Positions 4,284 to 62,869 are shown, counted from the first letter of the stretch. The stretch is 64,000 nt of DNA from a phage (PQ374922.1); one strand, 5' to 3'. Program-made: numbers and translations. The notes: generated by a model not told the origin, from the sequence alone.

Positions 4284-5067
4284 GTTCTCATCAAAGCAAC
4301 CTAAAGGTACGAGCTTCTGGAAGGGCTGGAACTCTTGCACGATGATGTCCAGCATACCCTTGTTACAAGTGGGAACGCTGGCCGACAACGTCACAGGTAC
4401 AGTGCGCACTTCTGGGTTCCAGAGTTCGGAAACAGAAATTATTGGCGTGACAAAGATGCGACAGCTCGTAAACAAGAGCATCGAGCATGCCAACAACAAT
4501 CTACTGATCCCGCGCATCAGGGTCACAAAATATCTCCACAGCAAAGGTGCTATTATGTCCAACGTACAATTTAAGAACGAAAACCCTAATTTCGCGGCGT
4601 CCGATAAGTGGCGTCTGACTATCGGAGACCTTGTACTCCTAACCCGTAACATCCACGACTTCAGTATACCAGGGGTGTACTCCGAAGGCATCGATGGTCC
4701 GTCTCCTGGTGACGTGTTGGTTTCTATACCTTCAGAGCGTTTAACCTATGATCCCGTCGTATTTACTTTCGTTATAGACGAGGACTGGAAATCATGGTTA
4801 CAGATCCACCAATGGATTACCAGCAACGTCGGCAAGGATTTGCCTGTCAGCAAGGACATTACCATTGAATTGCTGGATAACCTCAACCGACCGATTGGCC
4901 TCACTCTCGTGCTGGAGGAAGCCCGCCCGACTGCTTTGGACAACGTACTGGTGGACGTAGACGCAGCTGTACCTCAGCTGGTGACGACAGTGACCTTCAA
5001 GTTCCAACAGCTGGTTCCACTATCTGGTGGGAAGGCGATTGATTCTAATCCGCGAAATGCGGTATAA
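4252..5067 (+). CDS. hypothetical protein (271 aa from GTG; alternative ATG at 4555)
   Basis: GTG start preceded by AGGAGAGG at proper spacing; TAATAAATAC late-promoter-like element ~55 nt upstream. Confidence 0.45.
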   Translation: MVFQYGLRVLMFSSKQPKGTSFWKGWNSCTMMSSIPLLQVGTLADNVTGTVRTSGFQSSETEIIGVTKMRQLVNKSIEHANNNLLIPRIRVTKYLHSKGAIMSNVQFKNENPNFAASDKWRLTIGDLVLLTRNIHDFSIPGVYSEGIDGPSPGDVLVSIPSERLTYDPVVFTFVIDEDWKSWLQIHQWITSNVGKDLPVSKDITIELLDNLNRPIGLTLVLEEARPTALDNVLVDVDAAVPQLVTTVTFKFQQLVPLSGGKAIDSNPRNAV

Positions 5068-5097
5068 TTCTATGACATTGACAAGCTGGGATATTTT

Positions 5098-5550
5098 ATG
5101 AAAGAACAACTACAGACAATGGCTACCGAGGACATCATGAACGAACTGGAGCCGCTGATCACAGTGGACCCAGAAGACATGAACCTTGACCAGATCTCAC
5201 TGAAAATCGGGCGCTCTTGGATGGCTGTACAGCGGCATTATCTGCGCGAGGGGCGTTATCTTGAATTTCTCAACGGGCGCTTCCGCCAGATCGATCTCTA
5301 TCTGCGCCGCTACTATGCAGGGGAGTTACCCCCTAACATCTACGCAGAGCGCCCCCTGAAGGTTCGCCCCCTGAAGTCTGACCTAGATACATGGGTCAAA
5401 GCAGACGATGACTATGTGGAGTTGTCTGTTCTGTTACAAGAACAAAAAGCAAAAGTCAAGTTCATAGAGACTTGTTTGGATCGCCTGAACAAACTGGGAT
5501 ACGAAGTGAAAAATGCTATTGAGTGGAGAAAATATATTGATGGTGTATAA
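5098..5550 (+). CDS. possible UvsY-like recombination mediator (150 aa)
   Basis: Size, position next to UvsW-like helicase, and weak pattern similarity (RYYAG, acidic C-terminal helix) to T4 UvsY as recalled. Confidence 0.4.
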   Translation: MKEQLQTMATEDIMNELEPLITVDPEDMNLDQISLKIGRSWMAVQRHYLREGRYLEFLNGRFRQIDLYLRRYYAGELPPNIYAERPLKVRPLKSDLDTWVKADDDYVELSVLLQEQKAKVKFIETCLDRLNKLGYEVKNAIEWRKYIDGV

Positions 5551-8577: not shown

Positions 8578-9246
8578 ATGCAAGAGATCACTCTCTCCGA
8601 ACGTACACTTCAGTTGCTGGCCAACTTTGAGACCATCAACCCATCTATCGTTCTGACACCGGGCAAGATGCTGCGCAGTATTAATGATTCTTCTACTGTG
8701 ATCGCCGTGGCGCAGATCGAAGAAGACTTCCCGTTTGAGTTCCCGATTCTGGACCTGACCAAACTTCTGGCCATCCAGCGCCTACCTTCCTTCAAAGGTG
8801 CCAAAGCCGAATTCCATCAGGACTACATCCTGTTGAAAGGTGAAAGTTCTCAGCTGCAATTCTGGCGTTCTGCTAAAGAACTCACGGTTGTCCCGGCTGA
8901 TACTATCGAACTGCCGTCTGTTGACTTTGAAGCGATCATCACTCCAGAGAAGATGAAAGAACTGACCCGCGCCTGTTCTACCCTCGGACATAAGACTGTG
9001 CGCCTGGTTGCTCAGGGTGGCAAAACTCGCCTGGTTGCAACCACCACTACCCTGGACAACTCCAACAACTACACTGTTGAGCTGGGTGAAACCGCGCTGC
9101 CGGACTTCGTAATGCCGCTGGATGTTGCCAACCTGAAAATGATCGAAGGCAACTACACTCTGCGTGCCTGTGCTGATCTACAGATGGTGAACTTCCAATC
9201 ATCCGACGCGACGATCAATTACTTCGTCGGCGCACAGATTGAGTAA
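8578..9246 (+). CDS. sliding clamp, T4 gp45-like
   Basis: 222 aa, E. coli-optimal codon usage, immediately upstream of clamp-loader ATPase; order 45-44-62-regA as in T4. Confidence 0.8.
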   Translation: MQEITLSERTLQLLANFETINPSIVLTPGKMLRSINDSSTVIAVAQIEEDFPFEFPILDLTKLLAIQRLPSFKGAKAEFHQDYILLKGESSQLQFWRSAKELTVVPADTIELPSVDFEAIITPEKMKELTRACSTLGHKTVRLVAQGGKTRLVATTTTLDNSNNYTVELGETALPDFVMPLDVANLKMIEGNYTLRACADLQMVNFQSSDATINYFVGAQIE

Positions 9247-9274
9247 TCAATCTCCAGCCTGATGCTATAATGTG

Positions 9275-9300
9275 TGGGCGGGGCGTTCCCCGCCTATTTG
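9275..9300 (+). terminator. hairpin plus T-rich tract after clamp gene, preceded by TATAAT
   Basis: gggcgggg-cgtt-ccccgcc then tatttg; TATAAT at 9265-9270. Confidence 0.45.
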
Positions 9301-9327
9301 AAATGATTCTTCTACACGAGGCTGAAA

Positions 9328-10317
9328 ATGTCTAATATCACAATTGTAAAAGACCAGTATGCATGGGAAAACCGCTTCCGCCCTGACAACCTGGACGAGA
9401 TTATCATCCCTCAAGACGTCCGCGCTAAAATCCATGGCTACATCACCAGCGGCAACGGCAACATCCCGTCTATGCTGTTCTACTCCCCTCAGCCTGGTAC
9501 TGGCAAGACTACCTCCGCCCTGGCCGTGTGTAACGAGATCGGTTGTAAGCAACCACTGATGATCAACGCATCCCTGGACAACAGCATCGACGTTATCCGT
9601 GACCGCGTGATTCAGTACTCTACTGGTGTGAGCGTATTCGGTGGTCGCAAAGTCGTTATCCTCGACGAAGTAGAGCGTCTGTCTATGGCGGCACAGGAGT
9701 CGCTGAAGGGTATTGTGGAGAAGGTCTCCAAGAACTGTTCATTCATCCTGACCACCAACGCCAAGCAACGTGTGAACGAACCTCTGCGCTCTCGTTGCCG
9801 TGAAATCGACTTTATCTGGAATGAGACCGAGGCTGATGAGGTCAAACTTCAGTTCATGCGCCGCTGTGCTGAAATCCTTCGCTGCGAAGGTGTTGAGTAT
9901 GACCCTCCTGTGTTGGCTGCTATTGTCAAGCGCCATTTCCCTGATAACCGCCGCATCATGGGTGTTCTACAGGATAACGTCACCACTTACGGCAAGATCG
10001 ACGAACGTGCACTGGCTGTGTTAAAATCGGCCGATATGGGCATGTTGGTGAATATGTTGAAGGATAATGACTGGGCTGGGATGAAGCAGTGGGTGACCGA
10101 CAACCAGAACTATATCACTGAAGACTTCTATTCCCGCTTCTTCCAGTTCTGTGTACCACAGGATAAAGAGAAGCAAATGTTGGTTCAGAATGAGTCTATC
10201 CCTGATCTGGTATGTGTATGTGGTCAGTCTCAGATTGAACACCGTCAAGTCGGCGATGTCTGGCTGCATGCTGTGTTTTTCCTGACCAATGTCATGCTCA
10301 ACATCAAGTGGAAGTGA
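9328..10317 (+). CDS. clamp loader large subunit, T4 gp44-like AAA+ ATPase
   Basis: Walker A PQPGTGKTT, Walker B VVILDEVE, sensor motifs; 329 aa. Confidence 0.85.
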   Translation: MSNITIVKDQYAWENRFRPDNLDEIIIPQDVRAKIHGYITSGNGNIPSMLFYSPQPGTGKTTSALAVCNEIGCKQPLMINASLDNSIDVIRDRVIQYSTGVSVFGGRKVVILDEVERLSMAAQESLKGIVEKVSKNCSFILTTNAKQRVNEPLRSRCREIDFIWNETEADEVKLQFMRRCAEILRCEGVEYDPPVLAAIVKRHFPDNRRIMGVLQDNVTTYGKIDERALAVLKSADMGMLVNMLKDNDWAGMKQWVTDNQNYITEDFYSRFFQFCVPQDKEKQMLVQNESIPDLVCVCGQSQIEHRQVGDVWLHAVFFLTNVMLNIKWK

Positions 10318-10773: not shown

Positions 10774-11238
10774 ATGGCGCGTAATACGCTAGACATATTG
10801 AATATTTCAGCAGTCAACGATGAGGCCAGCATCGTTGATTGTATGGTTGAAGTTCAATTGAACCAAGATCGGCCAGGTATATTCCTGGGGATCAAGGAAA
10901 CACTGAGTCGAATTGGGGTAAACACGCGCCAAGAGCCGAATACTCTGTATCAGACTTGCCATATTCTTCATAAGTGTGGTAAGTATTATATCGTCCACTT
11001 CAAGCATCTATTTATGCTGGACGGGCATTATAACGGATTTAACCGCGAAGATGTCCTGAGGATGAACCGAATCATCAAGCTGCTGGAGCAGTGGAACATG
11101 GTGAAGGTCATTCATCCTGAGCAGGTCACTGAAGCAGCCGATATGTCTCGCATTAAAGTGGTTAAACACGATCAGGTTCCTGAATGGAAACTGGTTCCAA
11201 AATACATCATCCGGCCTACGAAGGCAAAAAGCGAATAA
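10774..11238 (+). CDS. regA: translational repressor RegA
   Basis: Similarity to T4 RegA as recalled: LYQTCHILHKCGKYYIVHFKHLFMLDG vs T4 LYQSCHILQKKGLYYIVHFKEMLRMDG, C-terminal EWKLVPKY. Confidence 0.85.
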   Translation: MARNTLDILNISAVNDEASIVDCMVEVQLNQDRPGIFLGIKETLSRIGVNTRQEPNTLYQTCHILHKCGKYYIVHFKHLFMLDGHYNGFNREDVLRMNRIIKLLEQWNMVKVIHPEQVTEAADMSRIKVVKHDQVPEWKLVPKYIIRPTKAKSE

Positions 11239-11254
11239 CTGGAGTCGCTAAATC

Positions 11255-12127
11255 ATGACAACTACATTTTCCAAGAACGTGAATCTGAATCTGGCTTTCG
11301 GTAATGCAAAGGGCGACGTCACATCGCCCGACTTTGGTAAGATCCGCAATCAGGCGAAACTGGTGCTGGAAGAAACCCGTGAACTGCTGGAAGCGGCGTA
11401 TTTCGACCACGAGGTGAAAATTGAGTTCACTGCATCTCCGCGAGTCCTGAAAGAACCCGTTGTTGTCGACATCAAAGACATTATGCGCCAGATCATGGAT
11501 GCTCAGGGCGACATCACAACAGTCAACGACGGCGTGGCTCATATTGCTGGTTTCGACGGTGACGAATGCCTACAGCGCGTGTATGCCTCTAACATGAGCA
11601 AGTTCATCCGTAATGAAGGTGAAGTTGTGCCAGCACTGGATTACTACTACAACAAAGGATTCCCACGCGAAAGTCTACGCATCGAAGGGGAATTCCCTCA
11701 GGCGTGCATCAAAGTGGTAGACACCATCACCGTCGACGGCAAAGAATACCCGGCTGGCAAGTTCCTGAAGAACATGGCAACCTTCAAAGAGCCTGACTTC
11801 TCTGATATGTTGACCGCCGAGCCTAAGCGCCAGATCACCGAAATCATTCTGACAGGTACGGCTACCCCAGGTCGACTCGGATGCAACGAACACGCTGGTG
11901 TTGCCTACGCACCGTTCGATTTTATTGACGAGATCGTGGGATACACCAAGATGGGCTTCCAGGCGTTCTCTGGCGAAACAGTCGAGAGCTACATTCCCGT
12001 GTTTGTTTTCAATGAAGACAACTTCCCAACTCTACCGTTGATCTGGGGTGAATGGAAAGCCAACGTCCGTATCTATGTGGCCAGCCCAGTGCAATCATCT
12101 ATCACCCAACTGACCCGTATCGATTAA
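11255..12127 (+). CDS. hypothetical protein (290 aa)
   Basis: Occupies the slot where T4 has DNA polymerase; optimal codon usage; no polymerase motifs. Confidence 0.6.
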   Translation: MTTTFSKNVNLNLAFGNAKGDVTSPDFGKIRNQAKLVLEETRELLEAAYFDHEVKIEFTASPRVLKEPVVVDIKDIMRQIMDAQGDITTVNDGVAHIAGFDGDECLQRVYASNMSKFIRNEGEVVPALDYYYNKGFPRESLRIEGEFPQACIKVVDTITVDGKEYPAGKFLKNMATFKEPDFSDMLTAEPKRQITEIILTGTATPGRLGCNEHAGVAYAPFDFIDEIVGYTKMGFQAFSGETVESYIPVFVFNEDNFPTLPLIWGEWKANVRIYVASPVQSSITQLTRID

Positions 12128-12149
12128 GATATACAGTTGTTCACTAAAC

Positions 12150-12177
12150 AACAGAGGCTATAATGGCCTCTGTTTTC
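12150..12177 (+). terminator. terminator hairpin with TATAAT in loop
   Basis: cagaggc-TATAATg-gcctctg followed by ttttcg. Confidence 0.55.
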
Positions 12178-12195
12178 GTATTCTAAGAGGATACC

Positions 12196-13416
12196 ATGAA
12201 AGATAAAGCCCTGGACGTCCCGTACTGCGGTGTCCGTGAAGAAAAGATAAAGTCGGCCAAACCGGTTCTCAGTCCGACCCATACCTGCCTGTCTTACGAA
12301 TGGATGCGCGATCGTTATCAGATCCACGTCAAGAAGGACGTCCAGCGCCTTCCTGCTCCTTGGACTGATAATCCCATATTACGGCAGGTCAAGTTCTGTA
12401 ACGTCCGGAGAGAGCACGACAGGCAGTCTCTCAACCTGATCAACAACATCGTCAACAACGATGCTCTGGGTATGGCCGACAAGATGTTCAACTGCGTGTT
12501 GTTCCGCATGTTCAACCTCTGGGATCCAATCCAGGCTATCGGCGGCGCGATGACGATCAAAGAATTCGCCGAGATCAACCTCGATGCAACCCGCGAACGA
12601 CTTAAGAAGTTCGAGGCCGACGGCGGTAAGGTATTCACCAATGCCTTCAACACGGGCGGCCTGAAACAATGCCTGGCTTTCCCTGAGATGGTTGTCAACC
12701 ACAAGGAGCAGCGCTTCGGTGGGATGATGGTGAATCTGATCTGTAAAGATGGTTCAACCCAGAACATGGATTATAAAGAAGCCAAGGCGATAGCCGAAGC
12801 AGAACCGGACTTCTACACCATCGAAGGTTGGGAACCGTACATGCCAATGCGTGTCATCCGCTCCCTGAAGGCATTCGTCAACAAGTATCCAAATTACTTC
12901 CATGACCTGCTGCGCCTTGGTACTCCTTTGGAAGTATACCAGCGCATGTACGACGACATCGAAGGGCTTGGTCCATTCCTGGCCTATCAGATCTGGGTAG
13001 ACTTCACTTACATTCCTGAATATCCTTTCAGTGAGAACCACTTCACGGTTGCTGGACCAGGCTGTCGCGCAGGGATCGACCTGATGTTCCAGGACAAAGA
13101 TGGCATGACGCATGAAGAATGCATCTTCTGGTTGCGGGACAATCAGGACGCGGTTTATGGCCCTCTTGGGTATAACAGGGAAGAATTTTGGTCTGCGGAA
13201 GAGCCTTGGGATCAGTGTATGAATGTGATGAGCATCGAGAATATGGCATGTGAATTGTCGAAATATACTCGTTGTGTAGAGGCCATACAGCAAGGTAAAA
13301 AACCGCGCGGGAAGGTTGGATATGACGGCGGTGGGGAATACAAAAAGCGCTGTGATGAAGTCGTGCTCAAACGTGGTTCCGTCAATTTGCTGGACCGTTT
13401 GAAGAAACCTGAATAA
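12196..13416 (+). CDS. hypothetical protein (406 aa), candidate nucleic-acid modification enzyme
   Basis: Long ORF after terminator-promoter hairpin; no motif confidently recognised. Confidence 0.6.
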   Translation: MKDKALDVPYCGVREEKIKSAKPVLSPTHTCLSYEWMRDRYQIHVKKDVQRLPAPWTDNPILRQVKFCNVRREHDRQSLNLINNIVNNDALGMADKMFNCVLFRMFNLWDPIQAIGGAMTIKEFAEINLDATRERLKKFEADGGKVFTNAFNTGGLKQCLAFPEMVVNHKEQRFGGMMVNLICKDGSTQNMDYKEAKAIAEAEPDFYTIEGWEPYMPMRVIRSLKAFVNKYPNYFHDLLRLGTPLEVYQRMYDDIEGLGPFLAYQIWVDFTYIPEYPFSENHFTVAGPGCRAGIDLMFQDKDGMTHEECIFWLRDNQDAVYGPLGYNREEFWSAEEPWDQCMNVMSIENMACELSKYTRCVEAIQQGKKPRGKVGYDGGGEYKKRCDEVVLKRGSVNLLDRLKKPE

Positions 13417-13530
13417 AGATTCCCTTTACTTCGTTCTTCAATAACTCAATCCAGCGTATATTGACCTCACTTAAACGAAGCGCCCTGGCAAACGGGGCGC
13501 ACATTTGAACTGAAACAGGAAGATTACACC

Positions 13531-15549
13531 ATGTCAGATTTTAAGCCCTTCGCAGTAGCTGTCAACAATAACGTGCTGGCCATGTCAGCAACTGGTCTGT
13601 TCATGACCAACATCGATAAAGATGCTCTGTGGGATCTGTATCTGTCTTCTTTCCCTGCTGGCACTAACCCGCTTTATCGTGAGCGTACCGAGCACGACTG
13701 TACCTGCTGCAAACAATTCATCCGTAACATCGGCGGTGTAGTCACCATCGACTCCGATCTGAACGTGATCTCTATCTGGGATAACATTCAGCTGGGTAAC
13801 GAATACGACGTTGTCGCTGCGGCGCTGTCAGCATATGTTAAGCAGCACGCAATCGTCGACGTGTACTTCAACGACACCAAGAAAGTTGGTGTTGAATCGA
13901 ATCACGAAATGAAAGACGGTATTGTCCGCACCTACAACCACTTCCACACCGACCTGCTGGGCAGCTATGTTCTGCGGGCAGATACCATCGCTTCTAAGAA
14001 GGGTGAAATCCGCCAGGCGATTGAAGTGTTTGAGCGCGGCCTGCGTGAACTGTCTCTGGAATCGGCTGAAATCGTTCTGGAATTGATCGACCAGAATTCT
14101 CTGTATCGCGGTGAAGAGCACAAAGCGGCAGTGCAGGCGTTCGTGGTGAACAAGACCCTGTACGAACAAACTGCAGAAGAGAAACGCGCTCTGTGGGCTT
14201 GGCGCACTGGCTACCGTGCAAACGGTCATACCCCTCACGGCATTCGTAATACCGTGATTGGCTCTCTGCTGGTAGACCTCAATGAAGGCCGGGATCTGGA
14301 AACCGCCGTGAAGTCCTTTGAAGCCAAAGTCGCTCCGACGAACTACAAGCGCCCAACCGCGCTGGTCACGAAATCCATGATTGAAAACGCGCAGAAAGAA
14401 GTCGAAGCGCTGGGTCTGACTGATTCACTGGGTCGCCGTTATGCCGTGTATGACGATCTGACCATCAACAACGTTCTGTTCGCCGACCTAGCAGCTCAGA
14501 AGAAGATGGACCCGTTTGCTCAGCTGGCGTCTGAAGTGAAGACTCCGACCAAGTCCCTGGACAAGGTTGAAGAGATCACGATCGACGACTTCCTGACCAA
14601 CGTGTTGCCAAAGGCGCATTCCCTGGAAGTGCTGGTCGAAAACTCTCACATTGGCAACCTGATGTCCCTGATCGCTCCGGCCACCGCAGGCGCTCCTAAC
14701 CTGTTCAAGTGGAACAACGGCTTCAGCTGGTCGTACAATGGCGAAGTGGCCGACTCCATCAAAGAGCGCGTGAAGACCGCAGGCGGCAATGTCGACAGCT
14801 TCCTCCGTGTGTCACTGGCTTGGCATAACAACGACGACCTGGATCTGAGCCTGAACGATCCTCTTCACAACCACGTGTATTATCACAACCGTCGTTCGAC
14901 AACTGGCGCAACTCTAGACATCGACATGAACGGTATGGACGGCATTGATCCAAACCGCCGTCCGGTGGAGAACATCTTCTTCAGCGATGAACGCAAGCTG
15001 CGTGATGGTCTGTACGAGTTCTATGTCACTAACTTCAGCCAGCGTGAAACCTGTGATATGGGCTTCGAAATCGAAGTTGAATACAAAGGCCAGACCAAGC
15101 GTTTTTCGCATCCTGGCCTGAAGCACAAAGATCGCACTCTGGCTGTTGTGATTGATGTCCGCGCTGGACAAGTGGTAGACATCCGTTCTACCCTGAAAGA
15201 CGACGCTCGCTCTCAGGAAATCTGGGGCATCAAGACCTCCGTCTTCCAGAAGGTACAGCTGGTTCTGAACTCACCAAACCATTGGGACGGCGAGCAGACT
15301 GGCAACAAGCACGTGTTCTTCATCCTGGAAGGTTGTGCTAACCCTGTCGGCACCCGTGGTTTCTATAACGAATATCTGAAGCCGGAACTTGATAAACACC
15401 GCAAGGTTTTTGAAATGTTAGGTGGTAAGATTAAAGTACAGCCAAGCACTGAGCAGCTGTCCGGTCTGGGCTTCTCTACCACCCAACGCAACCACGTGTT
15501 CGTGAAGGTGAGCGGTTCGTTCAACCGCACTGTGAAAGTTGTGTTCTAA
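13531..15549 (+). CDS. hypothetical protein (672 aa), highly codon-optimised
   Basis: Long ORF with strongly E. coli-optimal codons; no Walker or polymerase motifs seen. Confidence 0.65.
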   Translation: MSDFKPFAVAVNNNVLAMSATGLFMTNIDKDALWDLYLSSFPAGTNPLYRERTEHDCTCCKQFIRNIGGVVTIDSDLNVISIWDNIQLGNEYDVVAAALSAYVKQHAIVDVYFNDTKKVGVESNHEMKDGIVRTYNHFHTDLLGSYVLRADTIASKKGEIRQAIEVFERGLRELSLESAEIVLELIDQNSLYRGEEHKAAVQAFVVNKTLYEQTAEEKRALWAWRTGYRANGHTPHGIRNTVIGSLLVDLNEGRDLETAVKSFEAKVAPTNYKRPTALVTKSMIENAQKEVEALGLTDSLGRRYAVYDDLTINNVLFADLAAQKKMDPFAQLASEVKTPTKSLDKVEEITIDDFLTNVLPKAHSLEVLVENSHIGNLMSLIAPATAGAPNLFKWNNGFSWSYNGEVADSIKERVKTAGGNVDSFLRVSLAWHNNDDLDLSLNDPLHNHVYYHNRRSTTGATLDIDMNGMDGIDPNRRPVENIFFSDERKLRDGLYEFYVTNFSQRETCDMGFEIEVEYKGQTKRFSHPGLKHKDRTLAVVIDVRAGQVVDIRSTLKDDARSQEIWGIKTSVFQKVQLVLNSPNHWDGEQTGNKHVFFILEGCANPVGTRGFYNEYLKPELDKHRKVFEMLGGKIKVQPSTEQLSGLGFSTTQRNHVFVKVSGSFNRTVKVVF

Positions 15550-15593
15550 ACCTGATTTGAAATTGTAACCCATTCATCATTGAGGATAGTAAA

Positions 15594-15965
15594 ATGTTTG
15601 ATAAAGCAACCCGTATGAAACTGCGCTTCGAGTCTAACAAAGGTCTGCTGTCTGTTGAGCAGGTCTGGGACCTGAGCCTGACTGCCCTGAACGAAATGGC
15701 GAAAGGTCTGAGCCGTCAGGTGAAAGCAGCAGAAACCGATGAAGAAGATTTCATTGGTACCAAAAGCAACGTTGACTCCGAACTGCAGCTGCGCTTCGAC
15801 GTTGTCAAGCACATCATCGGCGTTAAGCTGAAAGAACGTGACGACAGCAGAGAAGCGGCAGAGCGTAAGGCGAACAACCAGGTTATCCTGGAGCTGATCC
15901 AGCGTAAGAAACAGCAAGAGCTGGAAAGCAAATCTGTTGAAGAACTGGAAGCGCTGCTGAAATAA
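15594..15965 (+). CDS. hypothetical charged alpha-helical protein (123 aa)
   Basis: AGGA RBS; followed by strong rho-independent terminator. Confidence 0.55.
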   Translation: MFDKATRMKLRFESNKGLLSVEQVWDLSLTALNEMAKGLSRQVKAAETDEEDFIGTKSNVDSELQLRFDVVKHIIGVKLKERDDSREAAERKANNQVILELIQRKKQQELESKSVEELEALLK

Positions 15966-15987
15966 CCCTGTTGGCCTCGGCCTGAGC

Positions 15988-16016
15988 AACCCCGCCATGT
16001 GCGGGGTTTCTTTTGG
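15988..16016 (+). terminator. rho-independent terminator
   Basis: aaccccgc-catgt-gcggggtt followed by tcttttgg. Confidence 0.7.
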
Positions 16017-16025
16017 ACAAAGAAT

Positions 16026-16436
16026 ATGAAACTTGTCATCTGTGATTACTGCGGCCTCCTAGCCGAATTCGTCGGTGGTGATGTTCTCTACCCTCATCGC
16101 CCTGACCTCCGCAATCTGAAGTTCTGGGTTTGTACCCCATGTGATGCCCGTGTCGGTTGCCATGCCCATGGCGACGGCAGACAACCTCTGGGAAGGATGG
16201 CGAATGCCGCTCTCCGTGCCGAGAAGCAAAAAGCCCATAGATCGTTTGACCCATTATGGAAAGGCGGAGAGAGGAGCAGGAGCGACGCTTACAGTTGGCT
16301 GGCGCATAAGCTGGGGATAAAGAAGCGTGAGTGTCATATTGGCTTGTTCGATATCGACATGTGCCGTAAAGTAGTTGTTGTCTGTCAACAATACGAGGCA
16401 CATATCAATGTCAAAGGAAATACAAGAAGCGTTTGA
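16026..16436 (+). CDS. Cys-rich zinc-binding protein (136 aa)
   Basis: CDYCG...CTPCDARVGCHAH cysteine pairs; internal ATG of ORF 15999..16436. Confidence 0.5.
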   Translation: MKLVICDYCGLLAEFVGGDVLYPHRPDLRNLKFWVCTPCDARVGCHAHGDGRQPLGRMANAALRAEKQKAHRSFDPLWKGGERSRSDAYSWLAHKLGIKKRECHIGLFDIDMCRKVVVVCQQYEAHINVKGNTRSV

Positions 16437-16713
16437 GAATCTAACTCAGGCGCTCACCAACTGCAACCGTCTCAACTATTGCAACGACCCATTGCAAAAG
16501 CTGAAGTCCCTGGTAGAATCAGAACTGGCTAAACTGGCCGAATACAACGCCATCCAAGAAGACGTGGCGTTCATGTCGGACACGGTCGTAGACACCCTTC
16601 CGCGCGAAGTGTACAATGTCTTGGACCGCATCGCAAAGGTGGGTTTCCGTGAACCACAAGACGCCAAACCCACCCCCGAAATTCTTACATCCATCGTTGA
16701 CTCGTTTAAGTGA
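16408..16713 (+). CDS. hypothetical protein (101 aa)
   Basis: Starts MSKEIQ; overlaps upstream gene by 29 nt. Confidence 0.45.
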   Translation: MSKEIQEAFENLTQALTNCNRLNYCNDPLQKLKSLVESELAKLAEYNAIQEDVAFMSDTVVDTLPREVYNVLDRIAKVGFREPQDAKPTPEILTSIVDSFK

Positions 16714-17062: not shown

Positions 17063-17917
17063 ATGTTTCGTTTGAAATTGAACGACCAAGATGTGTTCTA
17101 CAAACACTTCACCTTCCCAGGTGGTGAGGAACATATCAAGATTCAAAAGTCTGGTATCCCTATCGGCCACGTTCAGAACGTGGCGATTGATGCTCACATC
17201 AAATCATCGGCTGACTTCATTGAGCTGGCGCTTCTGGTAAACGCCGTTCGTGGTCTGGGTAACGTGGACCGTCTGACGACATTCCATGCGTATATCCCTT
17301 ACTTCCCGTATGCTCGCCAGGACCGCCATTGTGACTTCGGTGAGCCTCTGTCTGTGAAGTGGGCGGCTGAGTTCATCAATAGCATGAACTTTGACCGCGT
17401 GGCGATCAAAGATCCTCACAGCCATGTTGTGTCTTCTCTGATCAACAACGTCCATGTTGTCCCGCAAGATTACATCGTGCGTCAGTATCTGGGCTGGTTC
17501 ATCCGTGGGAACAACGCTGTGTTGGTAGCCCCTGACGGCGGCGCGGCTAAGAAGACCGAAGCCCTCAGTCTGTCGTTGGACGGTGTTCCTGTTGTCTACG
17601 GTCACAAGAACCGTGACACCAAGACTGGTGAGATCATTGGGGTGAGTATTACGAACCCTGAACTGATCAAAGACCGCTATCTGGTGGTGGTCGATGATAT
17701 CTGCGACGGTGGGCGCACGTTCGTTGAGTTAGGCAAAGAGCTTCAGAAGCACAAGCCTAAGCACATGACGCTCTTCGTTACCCATGGCATCTTCAGCAAA
17801 GGTCTCTCTGTTTTCGACGGGATCTATGATGCTGTGTATGCCGACACTGTCTGGTGGGAGAACATCACCGCCGACGGGCTTCCTTTCAAAACTGAAAATA
17901 CAGGACGTGTAAAATGA
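17063..17917 (+). CDS. ribose-phosphate pyrophosphokinase (PRPP synthetase) family; Prs or ADP-ribose pyrophosphokinase (Adps)-like
   Basis: IPYFPYARQDR and PRPP-binding VVVDDICDGGRTF motifs; 284 aa, shorter than cellular Prs. Confidence 0.85.
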   Translation: MFRLKLNDQDVFYKHFTFPGGEEHIKIQKSGIPIGHVQNVAIDAHIKSSADFIELALLVNAVRGLGNVDRLTTFHAYIPYFPYARQDRHCDFGEPLSVKWAAEFINSMNFDRVAIKDPHSHVVSSLINNVHVVPQDYIVRQYLGWFIRGNNAVLVAPDGGAAKKTEALSLSLDGVPVVYGHKNRDTKTGEIIGVSITNPELIKDRYLVVVDDICDGGRTFVELGKELQKHKPKHMTLFVTHGIFSKGLSVFDGIYDAVYADTVWWENITADGLPFKTENTGRVK

Positions 17918-19578
17918 GCATGCGCCACTTAGACCCAATCCATGCGATCGACTTCTACAAATCGGGGCACATCTATCAGTTCCCTGAAGGCAGTGAGCTG
18001 GTGTTCTCCAACGGAACTCCGCGCTCTAACAAACTGTTCAACTCTCACCTGCCGAAGAACGGCGTGGTGGTCTGGGGCATCCAGGGCTTCATGACCTGGT
18101 TCCACGAACTGTTTGACGAAGCATTCTTCCAGCGCCCGAAGGCCAAGGTGCTGAAGAAGTATGCCCGTCGCATGAACAAAGTCCTGGGTCCAGGCCGCGT
18201 CGGCACAGAGCATATTGAAGCCCTGCATGACCTCGGCTACCTGCCTATCGAAGTCCGTGCGCTGCCTGAAGGCACCATGTGTCCGTATGGCGTTCCGGTG
18301 TATGTGATGTTCAATACCCTGCCGGAGTTCTACTGGCTGACCAACTATCTGGAGACTGTGTTCAGCTCTGAGATCTGGAAGCCGATGACGAACGCCACCA
18401 TAGCTCTGCATTACAAGGCACTGATGGTGAAAGCTGCCCTCGCTACGGGAGTATCACCAGACCATTGGTTCATCGACTACCAAGGTCACGACTTCTCCTT
18501 CCGTGGTATGAGCGGGTGGCATGACGCCGCGTCTTCCGGTTCCGGTCATCTGGTGTTCTTCAAAGGCACCGACACCAACCCTGCCCTGGACTTCGTAGAA
18601 GAGTATTATGGCGCAGACATCGACGAAGACTATGTCGTTGCTGGGTCGGTTGCCGCAACGGAACATGCGGTGATGTGTATGGGCACGAAGGATGGTGAAT
18701 TCGAAACCTTCCGCCGCCTGGTGCAGGACGTGTATCCTGATGGCATCGTCAGCATCGTGTCTGATGCGTGGGATTACTGGCAGGTCATCGACGACTATCT
18801 GCCTCGCCTGAAAGACATTATCATGGCGCGCAATGGTAAAGTCGTGATCCGCCCCGACTCGGGCGACCCTGTACACATCGTCGGCGGCTACCGCATCGAG
18901 GGGTTCAAAGACCGCGCTACGCTGAACATCAGCGGCGTGTCTAGCAGCACCGAAGTTATCCACATCGAAGAGACGAACACCTATCACCTGATCACAGGCG
19001 AAGGCACGATCAACTCTCTGATGGCAGATGACCGTAATATCATCAGCCGTTCAGAAGCGGTCGGCTCTATCCAGCGCCTGTGGGAGATCTTTGGTGGCAC
19101 CCAGACTGAAACTGGGCACTTCCTGTTGGATGAGCACATCGGCCTGATCTACGGTGATTCTATCACCCTGGCGCGTGAAGACCAGATCTTTAGCCGTCTG
19201 GCTGACCGGAACTTCGCTTCCATCAACGTGGTGTTCGGTATCGGTTCCTACACCTACCAGATGAACACCCGTGACAGTACTGGCACAGCAGTGAAAGCCA
19301 CGGCTGGTAAAGTGAACGGTGAATTCCGTGAGATCTTCAAAGAGCCGAAGACCGATAAAGGCGGGACTAAAAAGTCTGCGCGTGGTTTCCTTAAAGTCAT
19401 TAAAGACCCTCAGGGTAAACTAGTGTTGGTTGACGGTATCACTTTTGATCAGGTGCAAGACGCCGACAACCAGCACCAGCTGGTGTATCGTGATGGCGAG
19501 TTCTTCAATACTCAAACACTGGAAGATGCGCGTGTTCGTGCTGCTCCTCTGGTGACGGAACTGGCATCACAAATCTGA
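17914..19578 (+). CDS. nicotinamide phosphoribosyltransferase family (NadV/NAMPT or Namat-like)
   Basis: 554-aa ORF translationally coupled to Prs-like gene (ATGA overlap); recognised as NAMPT-type phosphoribosyltransferase by overall sequence pattern. Confidence 0.8.
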   Translation: MSMRHLDPIHAIDFYKSGHIYQFPEGSELVFSNGTPRSNKLFNSHLPKNGVVVWGIQGFMTWFHELFDEAFFQRPKAKVLKKYARRMNKVLGPGRVGTEHIEALHDLGYLPIEVRALPEGTMCPYGVPVYVMFNTLPEFYWLTNYLETVFSSEIWKPMTNATIALHYKALMVKAALATGVSPDHWFIDYQGHDFSFRGMSGWHDAASSGSGHLVFFKGTDTNPALDFVEEYYGADIDEDYVVAGSVAATEHAVMCMGTKDGEFETFRRLVQDVYPDGIVSIVSDAWDYWQVIDDYLPRLKDIIMARNGKVVIRPDSGDPVHIVGGYRIEGFKDRATLNISGVSSSTEVIHIEETNTYHLITGEGTINSLMADDRNIISRSEAVGSIQRLWEIFGGTQTETGHFLLDEHIGLIYGDSITLAREDQIFSRLADRNFASINVVFGIGSYTYQMNTRDSTGTAVKATAGKVNGEFREIFKEPKTDKGGTKKSARGFLKVIKDPQGKLVLVDGITFDQVQDADNQHQLVYRDGEFFNTQTLEDARVRAAPLVTELASQI

Positions 19579-19680: not shown

Positions 19681-19896
19681 ATGATACTGAAAGAATGTTT
19701 TACCGACCTGAAGGCGACGTCTGAAAGTATTCCGGCTTGCATTCAGAACTATGCTCCAAAGGATGTGCTCTTGGCTCAGCTGGAGCAGTCTCGTGAATTT
19801 ATCAACAATATGCTGGACTCTGTAAAGACGCGCATCGAAGCCGCTGATGAGTCTGAACTTAACCCTTACGCACAAGGCGAAGAAAACAATGATTGA
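19681..19896 (+). CDS. hypothetical small protein (71 aa)
   Basis: ORF after terminator; weak RBS. Confidence 0.3.
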   Translation: MILKECFTDLKATSESIPACIQNYAPKDVLLAQLEQSREFINNMLDSVKTRIEAADESELNPYAQGEENND

Positions 19897-22090
19897 ATCA
19901 TTAGAATTTAAGAATGCGGTTGCGACTGCTGCCCCGTCCAACCATGTAATCGTTGTAGACATTTCCGGCTCTATGTACCGTGCGCTCCCTGAAGTCCGCA
20001 AGCACCTGAAGGAGAACCTGCCATCCCTGGTGAAACCGGAAGACACTGTGAGTGTTCTATACTTCTCATCCAAAGGCGACTTTGGTACTGTGTTCGCTGG
20101 CCGTCAGATCAATGCAGCATCCGACCTGAGCGAAATCAACAATCTGATTGACCGCTTCCTGAAACCGTCTGGTTGCACTGGCTTTGTTGAGCCGTTGAAA
20201 CTGGCGATGGACACTGCTCGTGGCCTGAAGAAGCCTGGCTATGTCAACAACCTGGCGTTCATGACTGACGGGTATGACAACTGCTGGCGTACCAACGAAA
20301 TTCTACTGGTTGCTGAGACCCTGCCATTTGCTTTCGATAACATTACATTTATTGAATATGGCTGGTACTGTAACCGCGAACTGCTGGCGCAGATGGCCGA
20401 ACGCTCTGGTGCTACTCACGTGTTTGCCGAAGGTCAGACCGAATACCAGACCGAACTGGAAAACGTGCTGAAGTCATCAGTGCCGAAGGTGAAAGTTGAT
20501 GTCCCAGTCATCTACACCCATGCCATCTACGTCGAAAACGGTGTGGCAACAGTACTGGCGGTGCAGGACGATGACTCTCACCCGGTCGGCTATGTGAGCA
20601 TCCCTGAGAGCATCACCAAGCTGTGGGTTGTAAACCCTAACATGATCGACCAGCTTGATGCGCTGGCGGATATCCAGGCGGCATACGTGCTGGCGTTCTA
20701 CGGCGTACACATCATGGACGCGGACCTGGTGTGGGCTGCACTGAAGAAAACGGGTGACGTTCGCTTCATCAAACAGTACAGCAACTGCTTCACCAAGCAG
20801 GACTACTCCAACATCAAGAACGATCTGGTTCAGGCGATTGTTGACGACCAGCTGCGCGGCGTTGACGGTATTGACTATGACCTGGTTCCGGCTGAAGATG
20901 CGACCACCGTCGTTGATGTGCTGACGTACCTGGCTGAAGCTGGTGTGCCTGTTGCTACCAAGCATCCGATGTTCTCCTATAAGAGCATCGGGCGCGGTAC
21001 TGTGCAGAAAACCGACGACACCGAAGACAAGCTGGCAGAACAGATCGCGAATGCTCAGTCCAAAGAAGAGCGTAAAGCCCTGGCTCTCAAGCTGGCAGAA
21101 CACGAAGAGTGGAACCCGACGTTCGAACCTACCAACGACCTGGGTGTTGTGCCAATCAGCGATTTGGTCTATAACTCCGAGCGCCCGAACATCAGTGTGC
21201 GTACAATTCAACACGGTACTGTGGCTGTGCCTGAATTCGCACAGAAGAAGTTTGGCCTGCCTGAAGAACTGGACACTTTCCAGTGGCGCAACTACACCAT
21301 CGTCAAAGACGGCATCATCAACGTGAAGACTCTGCCGTTCAAGGCTGATATCGAAGTTGTACAGAAGCTGATCGAAATGGGCGTCCACGTGTTTGGTGGT
21401 CCGGAAGTGTTCATCCTGAACCTGGAAAGCGTACCACTGGTCAACCGCGCCATGGTCAAGAACATCAGTGCTGCTCAGTTCTTTGCGGATAATGTCCGTT
21501 TGGAAGCCCTGAAAGGCAAGCAGAAGGTGCTGAAGTTCTATCGAGACGCCCTGGTTGGTAAGGGTAACGCCAAAGGCCTGGCAGTACAGTACGGTGCTGA
21601 GGCGGCCGAGTTCCTGTCCTCCTACGGTATCCGCGATTACGGCTTCTCACCGAAGACTGAGACCAAAGAGTCTACCGACTTCTACATGAGCCGTGAGCTG
21701 AACGTTAAGATCGCCGGGGCGTCTTCACTACCGAGCATCGCGGCAGTACAGAAGAAGATCGCAGAGAATAAGAAACTCAATGCTGGTGACTTGTTTATCG
21801 CCAATGCTCTGAAAGAGTACGAAGCATTCGTGAAGTCTCCTATGATCACTGCCGTGCCTGAAGCCTTACAGAAACAGCTGATCGAAAACTGGATCGACGC
21901 TGCTGCCAAGGCGGCCATCACCGAAGTCCGTGCCCTGAACAAGACACTGTCTAAAGTGGTGTATGGTATCGTTGCTGGCCACGGCTGGTTCACCGACCTC
22001 GACCTGGAAGAGTCCACCATGGAAGTTGAAGTGGATGGCGTGAAGTACAAGGTCACTGCCGAACTGACAGAGAAAGAAATCAAAATCTAA
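19889..22090 (+). CDS. von Willebrand factor A (vWA) domain protein (733 aa)
   Basis: MIDAS motif VIVVDISGSM...FMTDGYDN near N-terminus; internal ATG 19889 chosen. Confidence 0.7.
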   Translation: MIESLEFKNAVATAAPSNHVIVVDISGSMYRALPEVRKHLKENLPSLVKPEDTVSVLYFSSKGDFGTVFAGRQINAASDLSEINNLIDRFLKPSGCTGFVEPLKLAMDTARGLKKPGYVNNLAFMTDGYDNCWRTNEILLVAETLPFAFDNITFIEYGWYCNRELLAQMAERSGATHVFAEGQTEYQTELENVLKSSVPKVKVDVPVIYTHAIYVENGVATVLAVQDDDSHPVGYVSIPESITKLWVVNPNMIDQLDALADIQAAYVLAFYGVHIMDADLVWAALKKTGDVRFIKQYSNCFTKQDYSNIKNDLVQAIVDDQLRGVDGIDYDLVPAEDATTVVDVLTYLAEAGVPVATKHPMFSYKSIGRGTVQKTDDTEDKLAEQIANAQSKEERKALALKLAEHEEWNPTFEPTNDLGVVPISDLVYNSERPNISVRTIQHGTVAVPEFAQKKFGLPEELDTFQWRNYTIVKDGIINVKTLPFKADIEVVQKLIEMGVHVFGGPEVFILNLESVPLVNRAMVKNISAAQFFADNVRLEALKGKQKVLKFYRDALVGKGNAKGLAVQYGAEAAEFLSSYGIRDYGFSPKTETKESTDFYMSRELNVKIAGASSLPSIAAVQKKIAENKKLNAGDLFIANALKEYEAFVKSPMITAVPEALQKQLIENWIDAAAKAAITEVRALNKTLSKVVYGIVAGHGWFTDLDLEESTMEVEVDGVKYKVTAELTEKEIKI

Positions 22091-30648: not shown

Positions 30649-30693
30649 AGTTTCATTCCTCTTTCTATAAAACCAGTTTGGGATATTTATATC

Positions 30694-58936: not shown

Positions 58937-58965
58937 AAGCCATCTTCGGATGGCTTTTTATTTTC
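58937..58965 (+). terminator. rho-independent terminator between convergent genes (possibly bidirectional)
   Basis: aagccatc-ttcg-gatggctt followed by tttattttcc; A-run on the other side. Confidence 0.7.
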
Positions 58966-62858: not shown

Positions 62859-62869
62859 TGGAGCAGTTT

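Follow-up and report, generated by a model that had tools for sequence, protein, structure and literature searches.

The genes after regA

In phage T4, the replication genes are in the order 45-44-62-regA-43. What follows regA in a phage genome that shares the first part of this order? We analyzed a 64,000-nucleotide stretch of such a genome, which we will call the window. A preliminary description of the window proposed that the place of T4's DNA polymerase was taken by three genes of no recognizable function, which might encode DNA modification enzymes or replisome accessories. We think it quite probable that the interval from 11255 to 15965 instead holds the genes that ordinarily follow regA in ViI-like phages (Ackermannviridae), that it is not a slot in which the polymerase was replaced, and that it contains two unrelated functional units.

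The features of the block are:

10774–11238, + strand: regA translational repressor, the upstream boundary of the block (Pfam Translat_reg, E = 2.1e-34; phrog_242, E = 3.3e-53)
11255–12127, + strand: ORF1, 290 amino acids (phrog_2144 "MazG-like pyrophosphatase", E = 6.6e-133; phrog_671, E = 2.8e-20)
12150–12174, + strand: terminator-like hairpin 3' of ORF1 (11-bp stem and 3-nt loop, then the U-rich UUUUCGUAUU)
12196–13416, + strand: ORF2, 406 amino acids (Pfam HMUDK_hel, PF18723, E = 3.7e-81)
13480–13500 (approximately), + strand: GC-rich hairpin in the ORF2-ORF3 spacer (8-bp stem, without a U run)
13531–15549, + strand: ORF3, 672 amino acids, a multidomain DUF8224 protein (PF26675, phrog_1735)
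15594–15965, + strand: ORF4, 123 amino acids, K/E-rich (phrog_2018, E = 1.4e-47)
15988–16008, + strand: terminator-like hairpin 3' of ORF4, then UUUCUUUU

The window is from an Agtrevirus (Ackermannviridae). From 11000 to 16500, it is 98.5% identical at the nucleotide level to Escherichia phage A221, and it is ~92% identical to SKML-39 and Ag3, which are also in the genus Agtrevirus. We confirmed that the block lies downstream of genes for the sliding clamp, the clamp loader gp44, gp62 (Pfam Phage_clamp_A, E = 1.7e-10), and regA, which is the last gene of this T4-like run (gp62 and regA were confirmed by Pfam). ORF1, ORF2, and ORF3 are real open reading frames on the + strand, and each has ATG as its start codon. 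But there are four genes in the interval, not three: ORF4 had been missed.

Among the family members that we examined, the order regA-ORF1-ORF2-ORF3-ORF4 is also found in ViI and SKML-39. In Salmonella phage ViI (Vi01), the clamp, gp44, gp62, and regA genes are followed by Vi01_131c, 130c, 129c+128c, and 127c, which matches the window gene for gene. The regA proteins are 89% identical (to Vi01_132c), and the identities to ViI are 59% for ORF1 (Vi01_131c), 82% for ORF2, 83% and 76% for ORF3 (in two pieces), and 81% for ORF4. The Agtrevirus phages A221, SKML-39, Ag3, and SW16-7 share these genes after regA as well, in the same order and on the same strand. ViI differs in two ways: in its record, the DUF8224 gene is split over two reading frames (Vi01_129c+128c), unlike ORF3; and it lacks the RPPK/NAMPT pair that is 1.5 kb downstream of the block in the window. 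More broadly, the block was matched in 282 records of Ackermannviridae-type phages, with 167 of these matches covering at least 80% of the block. Since the genes after regA are the usual set of ViI-like genes, which are already catalogued, the layout is ordinary and the finding is already known. Genome organization in the Ackermannviridae is scattered rather than modular (PMC11721090).

As the preliminary description had stated, family-B polymerase motifs are absent; we found none in any of the six frames of the 64 kb window. A tblastn search of the window with the ViI polymerase (Vi01_190) was negative as well (best E = 0.32). With neither the motifs nor homology to Vi01_190, we rejected a T4 gp43-type DNA polymerase for every ORF in the interval. 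In ViI, the polymerase gene is a neighbor of gp243 and gp247 at 145 kb, ~56 kb away from regA (at ~90 kb). The polymerase is encoded elsewhere and was not displaced from the slot after regA.

The original proposal was that three novel, phage-specific genes had displaced the polymerase from a T4-type module, and that they were new modification enzymes or replisome accessories. This would fit with the absence of a polymerase after regA, unlike in T4, and with the place of ORF2 in a DNA modification pathway (see below). It is hardly credible given that databases and papers already have names for two of the three genes, and that ORF3 belongs to a pan-phage family which is tied to neither replication nor modification. 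As stated, displacement is refuted by the 282 matching records, by the order shared with ViI, and by the location of the polymerase in ViI. Describing the locus as a break in synteny with T4 was therefore misleading, and we found nothing to support a role as replisome accessories.

Hairpins and codon usage

The preliminary description also had the genes bounded by terminator-promoter hairpins. Hairpins are indeed present after ORF1 (the ORF1-ORF2 intergenic region folds with -21.1 kcal/mol, z = -3.86), between ORF2 and ORF3, and after ORF4. However, there is no hairpin in the 16-nt gap between regA and ORF1 or in the 44-nt spacer between ORF3 and ORF4, and neither promoter-like sites (10 versus 9.0 in shuffled sequences) nor terminator-like sites (10 versus 8.6) were enriched. 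Near the block, there is no match to the T4-type late promoter motif TATAAATA. The block is apparently arranged in three transcription units, and ORF3 and ORF4 appear to be co-transcribed.

Highly optimal codon usage had been claimed for all three of the longer genes, which was overstated. We computed the frequency of optimal codons (Fop) with the E. coli optimal codon set and ranked the 68 ORFs of the window (mean 0.562, standard deviation 0.083). ORF3 stands out (0.695, rank 5), unlike ORF1 (0.641, rank 11) and ORF2 (0.595, rank 19).

ORF2 is an orthologue of ViI gp160

ORF2 matches PF18723 with 273 bits, as compared to a gathering cut-off of 25, and the match covers positions 6–280 of the 281 in the profile. 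Across its full length, it is identical at 82% of positions to ViI gp160 (Vi01_130c), and the neighboring genes are the same. (We identified gp160 as orf00160 and Vi01_130c from the notes in the record; the numbering, with gpN as orf000N, was verified with the accessions of gp226, gp243, and gp247.) ORF2 is an orthologue of gp160 and so belongs to the published gene set for the hypermodification of thymidine to 5-NeOmdU. The gp160 protein was one of five ViI proteins in the reconstitution of 5-NeOmdU in lysates, and Phyre2 indicated a helix-hairpin-helix glycosylase-like fold for its family (PMC5889632). In the literature, the family is known as aGPT-Pplase1, a name given for the orthologue from Agtrevirus SW16-7 (PMC10458263). 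Synthesis of 5-NeOmdU in vitro does not need gp160 (PMC8989533). Purified gp247 and gp226 suffice for the transfer of serine and its decarboxylation to 5-NeOmdU, with gp160 absent.

The genome also encodes both the 5-hmdU DNA kinase and the dUMP hydroxymethylase, at the end of the window:

62858–63529, + strand: 5-hmdU DNA kinase (5-HMUDK, ViI gp67 family; Pfam HMUDK_HMUD1, E = 6.3e-109)
63529–64000, + strand: start of a thymidylate-synthase-like dUMP hydroxymethylase (Thymidylat_synt, E = 4.8e-4 for a 157-amino-acid fragment; the window ends within the gene)

The kinase has a Walker A motif (GSNGSGKST) and is a distant pathway partner of ORF2. The ATG of the hydroxymethylase overlaps the stop codon of the kinase (TGATG), and its start is collinear with SKML-39 gp115.

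ORF2 is also a paralogue of the amino-acid:DNA transferases, based on the literature, short tblastn matches, and an alignment of motifs. These ADDT transferases (formerly aGPT-Pplase2; they include ViI gp247, M6 gp51, and PaMx11 gp46) share with ORF2 an N-terminal DP[IV]x motif, a G-x-aromatic helix motif, and a C-terminal E-x3-C, and both groups are found in genomes with the 5-hmdU DNA kinase and the dUMP hydroxymethylase. In an alignment of 30 members of the ORF2 family, E348-x3-C352 is invariant. An unsupervised MAFFT alignment with the PaMx11 gp46-type transferase places E348 and C352 opposite its E243 and C247, and the DP[IV]x motif aligns too. In the structure of PaMx11 gp46, Glu243 binds metal and Cys247 is nucleophilic (PMC11472151); by analogy, E348 of ORF2 would bind metal and C352 would be the nucleophile.

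In contrast to the ADDT transferases, ORF2 is in a separate Pfam family (PF18723), has an insertion of ~100 residues, and is dispensable for 5-NeOmdU in vitro. Comparing the ORF2 profile to the ViI gp247 sequence with hhalign found nothing, and a search of PDB with this profile did not find the transferase. ADDT (PF18724) does not match ORF2; it does match ViI gp247 (E = 3.2e-58) and Ab18 ORF09 (E = 1.7e-26). So we rejected ORF2 as a member of the ADDT family, although it has the Glu-x3-Cys dyad. Because ORF2 retains the aligned dyad without matching ADDT, it may work like a transferase from outside that family.

We infer that, in freshly replicated DNA, the base 5-(phospho)hydroxymethyl-uracil is flipped out by ORF2, which would then attack it at C6 and give an exocyclic methylene intermediate next to the 5-hmdU DNA kinase. 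Together, ORF1 and ORF2 would form the first functional unit, which would serve DNA with modified thymidines.

We also considered that ORF2 might not be catalytic, and might instead serve the 5-hmdU DNA kinase as a helical subunit that binds DNA or presents the base. The Pfam name of its family, "5-hmdU DNA kinase, helical domain", implies as much. In Pseudomonas phage Ab18, HMUDK_hel adjoins the kinase and the hydroxymethylase, and its start abuts the stop of the kinase; in Acinetobacter phage 15599, it is directly upstream of the hydroxymethylase; and in SP10 gp186, it is fused to the kinase (PMC5889632 Table 3). The dispensability of gp160 in vitro fits as well, and the M6 kinase alone phosphorylated just ~23% of 5-hmdU, which leaves room for a helper. 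However, the dyad is invariant in the ORF2 family, and its two residues line up with the Glu and Cys that are catalytic in the transferases. Furthermore, the kinase domain of SP10 is active alone, without the HMUDK_hel part, and in the Ackermannviridae, ORF2 is ~50 kb from either kinase. We consider the subunit explanation unlikely and favor a catalytic role for ORF2.

ORF1, a putative MazG-type pyrophosphohydrolase

By sequence, residues ~1–190 of ORF1 are a predicted all-alpha NTP pyrophosphohydrolase domain of the MazG/PRA-PH/DR2231 type. The remaining ~100 amino acids are a C-terminal extension that is restricted to the Ackermannviridae. ORF1 has no direct match in Pfam or NCBIfam, and the link is transitive: a homologue from Pseudomonas phage Pa BHU-17 (38% identity) matches PRA-PH (E = 2.2e-7) and MazG (E = 2e-4). 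The best profile matches in PDB are weak (E = 0.08), and all of them are to DR2231, a MazG-like dUTPase from Deinococcus radiodurans, which lacks the extra C-terminal domain. The match to DR2231 spans the helix with the acidic motif and an "SN(L/M)SK" segment, and the ExxE pair is conserved. The acidic motif of ORF1, EExxE...D, is as in all-alpha NTP pyrophosphohydrolases, in which metal is bound by ExxE on one helix and D/E on a later helix. E40, E43, G85, and D86 are invariant across eight aligned sequences (38–86% identity), and D82 is conserved in seven of the eight. So the statement that the genes lack catalytic signatures was wrong for both ORF1 and ORF2, and neither of them is unknown, as both have been annotated or published; that label does hold for ORF3.

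ORF1 would hydrolyze at least one type of (d)NTP, releasing PPi and the monophosphate and leaving a pool that suits the synthesis of 5-hmdU-DNA. A role in DNA modification, by shaping the dNTP pool, is plausible. In Acinetobacter phage SH-Ab 15599, a hypermodifying phage of the Ackermannviridae class, the pyrophosphatase that edits the pool is gp18, an experimentally proven bifunctional dTTPase/dUTPase (PMC13458397). ORF1 might be expected to fill the same role, but it is not similar in sequence (BLASTP E = 1.4) and does not match dUTPase_2, so we rejected a dTTPase/dUTPase of this type. In Agtrevirus, the homologue of 15599 gp18 is SKML-39 gp117 (dUTPase_2, E = 1e-9), which is a different gene and lies outside the window. 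Since the proven type is another gene in Agtrevirus and is dissimilar to ORF1, the link between ORF1 and hypermodification is contextual.

Alternatively, ORF1 could be a general MazG-type pyrophosphatase of phages, with a role in housekeeping, stress, or anti-defence and no relation to thymidine hypermodification. Its substrates might be, for instance, non-canonical dNTPs, alarmones, or signalling nucleotides. Besides the separate dTTPase/dUTPase gene, this is suggested by standalone proteins from N4-like phages of Pectobacterium and Klebsiella, which are 50–54% identical to the catalytic domain of ORF1, and by the presence of this domain in Pseudomonas phages as well. We give this explanation somewhat less than an even chance. 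It does not explain why ORF1 directly adjoins the gp160 orthologue wherever we read the gene order (ViI and SKML-39), or why a short MazG-like gene is again 3' of regA in Vibrio phage 207E48.1, a distant member of the phage family. Also, phages of the hmU type are known to need several pool-editing enzymes (PMC8989533).

ORF3 and ORF4 form a widespread cassette

ORF3 matches phrog_1735 from end to end. (The assignment to PF26675 is precomputed, on homologues of 48–99% identity.) DUF8224 has over 5,000 relatives from many phage families. In a structural model (pTM 0.50), residues ~420–560 form a TerD-like beta-sandwich. Residues ~300–410 have a confident fold in the full-length model only, and for residues 1–300, a predicted alpha/beta and helical half, we did not find a structural match. 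The N-terminal module has an invariant ExxExDCxxC...H cluster. TerD tellurite-resistance proteins (PDB 2kxt and 2qz7) and a DUF2135 sandwich are 10–18% identical to ORF3, and Pfam's TerD does not match it. Unlike in TerD, the sandwich is just one domain of a 672-amino-acid protein whose other domains match nothing. Going by the model, the sandwich presumably binds Ca2+.

ORF4 is probably a helical protein. Its homologues are immediately 3' of DUF8224 in all seven of the other contexts (eight of eight with the window), with gaps of 9–241 nt and phmmer E values of 1e-17 to 1e-30. The pair is found in N4-like, Bacillus, Caulobacter, cyanobacterial, and other phages, and within ~6–8 kb of DUF8224 in those phages, we saw no hypermodification genes. 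The cassette is not specific to thymidine hypermodification. Thus the suggestion that the block encodes DNA modification enzymes was borne out for ORF2 and is plausible for ORF1, but it is not supported for ORF3.

ORF3 and ORF4 would be the second functional unit, a two-gene cassette found in large virulent phages of many families. It lies among early and middle genes for replication and nucleotide metabolism, and from this position and the absence of the late-promoter motif, we infer early or middle expression. The two proteins may form a cytoplasmic enzyme or a ligand-sensing complex whose target is common to all of the hosts. We also considered that ORF3 and ORF4 might be structural (in the virion or injected), as the fifth-highest codon optimality in the window might suggest for ORF3, or that ORF3 might be a DNA-directed RNA polymerase, as it is labelled ("putative DNA-directed RNA polymerase") in the GenBank records of GEC_vB_GOT, Ro1, and ChubbyThor. 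Next to a cytoplasmic role, these are very unlikely.

Wider implications

We tentatively raise two wider readings, and it is rather doubtful that at least one of them is true: that DUF8224 and its partner of ~125 amino acids are an uncharacterized two-component system of large virulent phages, or that gp160/HMUDK_hel is the missing enzyme that converts 5-phosphomethyl-uracil back to plain thymine. If the former is true, then a TerD-like domain that binds Ca2+ or another ligand would be coupled to a novel fold at the N-terminus, which would be catalytic or bind metal, and phages whose hosts are Gram-negative as well as those whose hosts are Gram-positive would share a system with a biochemical function that has not yet been described for phages. 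If the latter is true, then the gp160 clade would use Glu/Cys exocyclic-methylene chemistry on the 5-phosphomethyl-uracil that is left over from hypermodification, and would thereby fix 5-NeOmdU and T at a ratio of ~40:60.

The gene order downstream of regA is shared with phage ViI

The interval downstream of regA encodes four ORFs:

11255-12127, + strand: ORF1, 290 aa, starting with ATG
12196-13416, + strand: ORF2, 406 aa, starting with ATG
13531-15549, + strand: ORF3, 672 aa, starting with ATG
15594-15965, + strand: ORF4, 123 aa

The preliminary description listed the ORFs of 290, 406, and 672 amino acids, all of which we confirmed, but the interval also holds ORF4. Upstream (5') of ORF1, the genes encode the sliding clamp, gp44 (the clamp loader), gp62 (Pfam Phage_clamp_A), and regA (matching Pfam Translat_reg at 2.1e-34), so the T4-like run of genes that had been noticed is real. 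The reported lack of family-B polymerase motifs was also borne out: there are none in any frame of the 64 kb window, and tblastn of the polymerase from the closest studied relative against the window gave no match.

It was misleading, however, to describe the lack of a polymerase gene after regA as a break in T4 synteny. A megablast search with positions 11000-16500 (the interval and its flanks) matched 282 phage records, with coverage of 80% or more of the query in 167 of them. The best match was Escherichia phage A221 (98.5% identity), followed by SKML-39, Ag3, SW16-7, and others at 92–97% identity; the top matches were all Ackermannviridae of the genus Agtrevirus, and SKML-39 is collinear with the whole window. 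In Salmonella phage ViI (NC_015296), the order is clamp, gp44, gp62, regA, Vi01_131c, Vi01_130c, Vi01_129c plus Vi01_128c, and Vi01_127c, which matches the window gene for gene, and the proteins of this block are 59–89% identical. The ViI DNA polymerase (Vi01_190) is at 145 kb, about 56 kb from regA, and adjoins the hypermodification genes gp243 and gp247. In Ackermannviridae, the genes are scattered, in contrast to the modular organization of T-even phages (PMC11721090). Because ViI has the identical order, with its polymerase elsewhere, and because the family's layout is scattered, the apparent break is the shared layout of a different family and not a local event. Given the near-identical published genomes and the named protein families, the block after regA is already catalogued.

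ORF2 is the ortholog of ViI gp160

ORF2 matches the whole of Pfam HMUDK_hel ("5-hmdU DNA kinase, helical domain"; PF18723) with E = 3.7e-81. The record for its ViI ortholog, Vi01_130c, carries the note orf00160. The accessions in Lee et al. for gp226, gp243, and gp247 carry the notes orf00226, orf00243, and orf00247, so the orf numbering is the gp numbering, and the gp160 of Lee et al. is Vi01_130c. Table 3 of PMC5889632 classifies gp160, PhiW-14 gp72, and the C-terminal half of SP10 gp186 as "aG/PT-PPlase1", and gp160 was among the five lysates that jointly made 5-NeOmdU (the hypermodified thymidine of ViI) from 5-hmdU DNA (PMC5889632). The ortholog in Agtrevirus SW16-7 was named aGPT-Pplase1 (PMC10458263). 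Later biochemistry assigned the steps of the pathway to two kinases (gp67 and gp243), a serine:DNA transferase (gp247), and a PLP decarboxylase (gp226), and gave gp160 no role (PMC8989533).

In other phages, members of the HMUDK_hel family are closely linked to the genes for the kinase and the hydroxymethylase. For instance, Pseudomonas phage Ab18 has an HMUDK_hel gene (9.8e-40) that starts at the stop codon of the kinase gene and is followed by the hydroxymethylase. The window's own kinase and hydroxymethylase genes are at its end:

62858-63529, + strand: 5-hmdU DNA kinase (HMUDK_HMUD1, 6e-109)
63529-64000, + strand: dUMP-hydroxymethylase-like gene, cut by the end of the window

These two genes overlap (TGATG), which suggests translational coupling.

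We also noticed that Acinetobacter phage SH-Ab 15599 (MH517022) has an HMUDK_hel gene (6.2e-40) immediately 5' of the hydroxymethylase, and that its gene for Pplase2 (ADDT, an amino-acid:DNA transferase) lies directly after regA, which is the slot of ORF1 in the window. (The loci for these HMUDK_hel and Pplase2 observations are 8961-9926 and 4376-5251.) The text of the 15599 paper (PMC13458397) does not contain the HMUDK_hel accession, "gp16", or "helical domain".

Among 30 aligned members of HMUDK_hel, the invariant residues include P55-W56-T57, R71-R72-E73, G287-P288-G289-C290, E348, N349, C352, E353, and K356. In an unsupervised MAFFT alignment of four HMUDK_hel proteins and three ADDT proteins, the motifs DP[IV]x, G-x-aromatic, and E-x3-C line up. 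In the crystal structure of PaMx11 gp46, Glu243 is a metal ligand, and Cys247 is proposed to attack, as the nucleophile, C6 of 5-PmdU, the phosphorylated 5-hmdU precursor (PMC11472151). These residues are the E and the C of VETILC in the Ab18 ortholog and align with E348 and C352 of ORF2, which argues that ORF2 is probably a catalytically competent paralog and not a passive helical domain. A comparison of the ORF2 family to the single sequence of ViI gp247 with hhalign found nothing and did not confirm the paralogy. Nor did we find anything relevant in a profile search of PDB with the ORF2 family, any BLASTP similarity between ORF2 and the Pplase2 of 15599, or any papers on PF18723 or HMUDK_hel.

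The preliminary description suggested that the ORFs in this interval might be DNA modification enzymes. This fits ORF2, as the ortholog of gp160, and is plausible for ORF1, but it is unsupported for ORF3.

A possible role for gp160 in forming thymine

A gp160-type paralog with the catalytic Glu and Cys is present in every well-studied phage that hypermodifies thymidine (PhiW-14, SP10, ViI, M6/PaMx11-like phages, and 15599). The reconstituted hypermodification pathways work without it, and the papers that we consulted on these pathways assign no reaction to it and no enzyme to the formation of thymine. These phages first make DNA with 5-hmdU fully replacing T (Lee et al., PMC8989533), while mature ViI DNA has only about 40% 5-NeOmdU (PMC11721090). 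Furthermore, with borohydride, M6 gp51 converts 5-PmdU to thymidine via an exocyclic methylene (PMC8989533). Taken together, the initial replacement by 5-hmdU, the partial hypermodification, the borohydride reaction, and the lack of an assigned enzyme make the clade-1 enzyme (ORF2/gp160) a reasonable candidate for thymine formation, although this is speculation. We imagine that the clade-1 enzyme would capture the exocyclic methylene intermediate with a reductant or another nucleophile.

ORF1 is a putative NTP pyrophosphohydrolase

As judged from its sequence, ORF1 is a putative all-alpha NTP pyrophosphohydrolase. It matches phrog_2144 ("MazG-like pyrophosphatase") from end to end (6.6e-133), and residues 2-193 match phrog_671 ("nucleotide pyrophosphohydrolase"; both from PHROGs). 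ORF1 has no direct match in Pfam or NCBIfam, but its homolog from Pseudomonas phage matches Pfam PRA-PH (2.2e-7) and MazG (2e-4). By tblastn, residues 1-186 are 50–54% identical to standalone proteins from N4-like Pectobacterium phages and a Klebsiella phage, and 33–43% identical to proteins from Vibrio and Pseudomonas phages; the last ~100 residues are found in Ackermannviridae only. The eight proteins that we aligned (ORF1 and its homologs) all share E40, E43, G85, D86, S112, N113, and K116. When the ORF1-family profile was compared to PDB, the only matches were weak ones (E = 0.08–0.8) to the MazG-like dUTPase DR2231, and direct sequence searches of PDB with ORF1 or ORF2 found nothing at E ≤ 1.

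In phage 15599, the thymine-hypermodification pathway is fed by gp18, a dTTPase/dUTPase (2026; PMC13458397). ORF1 is not homologous to gp18 (no similarity by BLASTP), and the Agtrevirus counterpart of gp18 is a different gene: SKML-39 gp117 is a homolog of gp18 (E = 1e-9) and has no BLASTP similarity to ORF1. So, Agtreviruses seem to carry two different all-alpha NTP pyrophosphatases. (SKML-39 gp117 matches dUTPase_2 at 1.3e-7 and is at 29990-30544 of SKML-39, beside the hydroxymethylase and outside the window.) The link between ORF1 and hypermodification is plausible from gene position only.

Transcription units and codon usage

We found three hairpins in the interval or just beyond it:

12150-12174: 3' of ORF1 (z = -3.9)
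~13480-13500: in the spacer between ORF2 and ORF3
15988-16008: 3' of ORF4

Neither the regA-ORF1 gap nor the ORF3-ORF4 gap has a hairpin. These positions suggest three transcription units: regA-ORF1, ORF2, and ORF3-ORF4. The ORFs had been described as bounded by terminator-promoter hairpins; the three hairpins are there, but two of the junctions lack them, and consensus promoter-like and terminator-like sites are no more common than in shuffled sequence. Neither an Rfam scan nor a tRNA scan matched anything in the window.

All three of the longer ORFs had also been described as codon-optimized. Using a list of optimal codons for E. coli, the frequency of optimal codons across 68 ORFs in the window averages 0.562 ± 0.083. 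ORF3 clearly is optimized (0.695, rank 5 of 68), but ORF1 (0.641, rank 11) and ORF2 (0.595, rank 19) are not clearly so. There are also antisense ORFs of 136–179 amino acids within ORF2, ORF3, and ORF4 (12318-12767, 12754-13293, 13828-14238, and 15546-15998, minus strand). No relative's record has a gene annotated at these positions, and the most likely source of these ORFs is codon bias on the coding strand.

The 64 kb contain two exact T4-type late-promoter motifs (TATAAATA), at 59937-59944 (-) and 30684-30691 (-), which is not a significant number relative to shuffles. One of them is just 5' of a minus-strand structural gene (58958-59902) whose SKML-39 counterpart is annotated as "tail tube protein".

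Genes further downstream

Directly after the terminator of ORF3-ORF4 is a gene for a DUF3268 zinc-finger-containing protein (15999-16436, +; 1.4e-35), which is conserved in ViI and does not accompany DUF8224 (the family of ORF3) in other phages. Further 3' is a ribose-phosphate-pyrophosphokinase-like gene (17063-17917, +; 284 aa), which overlaps a NAMPT-like gene (17914-19578, +; 554 aa; Pfam NAPRTase, 5e-32). Such pairs have been linked to the reconstitution of NAD+ by phages in response to NAD-depleting defenses (PMC11721090, citing Osterman et al.). ViI lacks the pair at the syntenic position. A 747-aa protein at 19847-22090 (+) carries a von Willebrand A domain at its N terminus (Pfam VWA, 3.7e-6), belongs to phrog_2426 (annotated as unknown function), and is 82% identical to ViI Vi01_123c.

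ORF3 and ORF4 form a widespread cassette

ORF3 matches phrog_1735 (annotated as unknown function) from end to end, and its homologs carry Pfam PF26675 (DUF8224). It has over 5,480 relatives at E ≤ 0.001, many of them 48–55% identical over their full length. DUF8224 is found in 558 records of sequenced phages, including Ackermannviridae, Mydovirus-type phages of Klebsiella and Proteus, N4-like phages of Xanthomonas, Stenotrophomonas, and Vibrio, Bacillus Herelleviridae, large Caulobacter phages, Pseudomonas phage pf16, and phages of Phaeobacter and Microcystis. Shorter and distant versions occur in jumbo phages and Bradleyvirinae. In the window and in other relatives, the gene is a single ORF of 672 amino acids, unlike in the ViI record (NC_015296, 25303-27319, minus strand), where a frameshift or a sequencing error splits it between Vi01_129c (491 aa) and Vi01_128c (183 aa), which are in different frames.

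ORF4 belongs to phrog_2018, is rich in K and E, and is probably helical. In all seven of the other contexts that we considered (an N4-like phage of Xanthomonas, one phage each of Bacillus and Caulobacter, and four metagenomic contigs), a homolog of ORF4 (phmmer E = 1e-17 to 1e-30) lies directly 3' of DUF8224, with gaps of 9–241 nt. The small ORFs 3' of the short, distant DUF8224-like proteins of DoCa6 and BUCT660 have no detectable kinship to ORF4. No other gene from the window accompanies DUF8224 in other phages; the genes around it vary between phages and have roles in replication, repair, or nucleotide metabolism or are other early genes. There is no T4-type late-promoter motif near the block of ORF1 to ORF4. 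Because of the constant partner, the varied early-gene neighbors, and the lack of a late-promoter motif, we describe ORF3-ORF4 as an autonomous, widely conserved two-gene cassette that is not tied to thymidine hypermodification and is probably non-structural.

As to what ORF3 does, E51, E54, D56, C57, C60, H137, and further Arg, Tyr, and Asp residues in its N-terminal half are invariant across 39 aligned sequences, which suggests a metal site or an active site. An AlphaFold2 model built from this alignment had a mean pLDDT of 83 and a pTM of 0.50; its N-terminal half had no structural match, and a structure search of BFVD matched only uncharacterized phage proteins. A direct sequence search of PDB with ORF3 found nothing at E ≤ 1 except for a chance match, Pfam searches with 39 members of DUF8224 gave noise below the threshold and four weak matches to DUF2135, and neither NCBIfam nor PADLOC matched any of ORF1 to ORF4. 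We found no papers on PF26675 or DUF8224.

We also considered whether ORF3, the nearby PRTase-type genes, and the vWA protein might make up a Ter-like system, but ORF4 is the sole gene to accompany DUF8224 in other phages, so we set this idea aside. The only match of the ORF3 profile in PDB, to a RING finger (E = 0.16), is a chance match to the CxCC motif. A few GenBank records label ORF3 as "DNA-directed RNA polymerase", which we reject because the model gives it no structural support.

DUF8224 and its partner are 40–50% identical between Bacillus and enterobacterial phages, which is a level of conservation that is typical of core enzymes. The main value of this analysis is a correction: where a genome comes from another family with a fixed layout of its own, a gap in synteny with T4 does not signal novelty.
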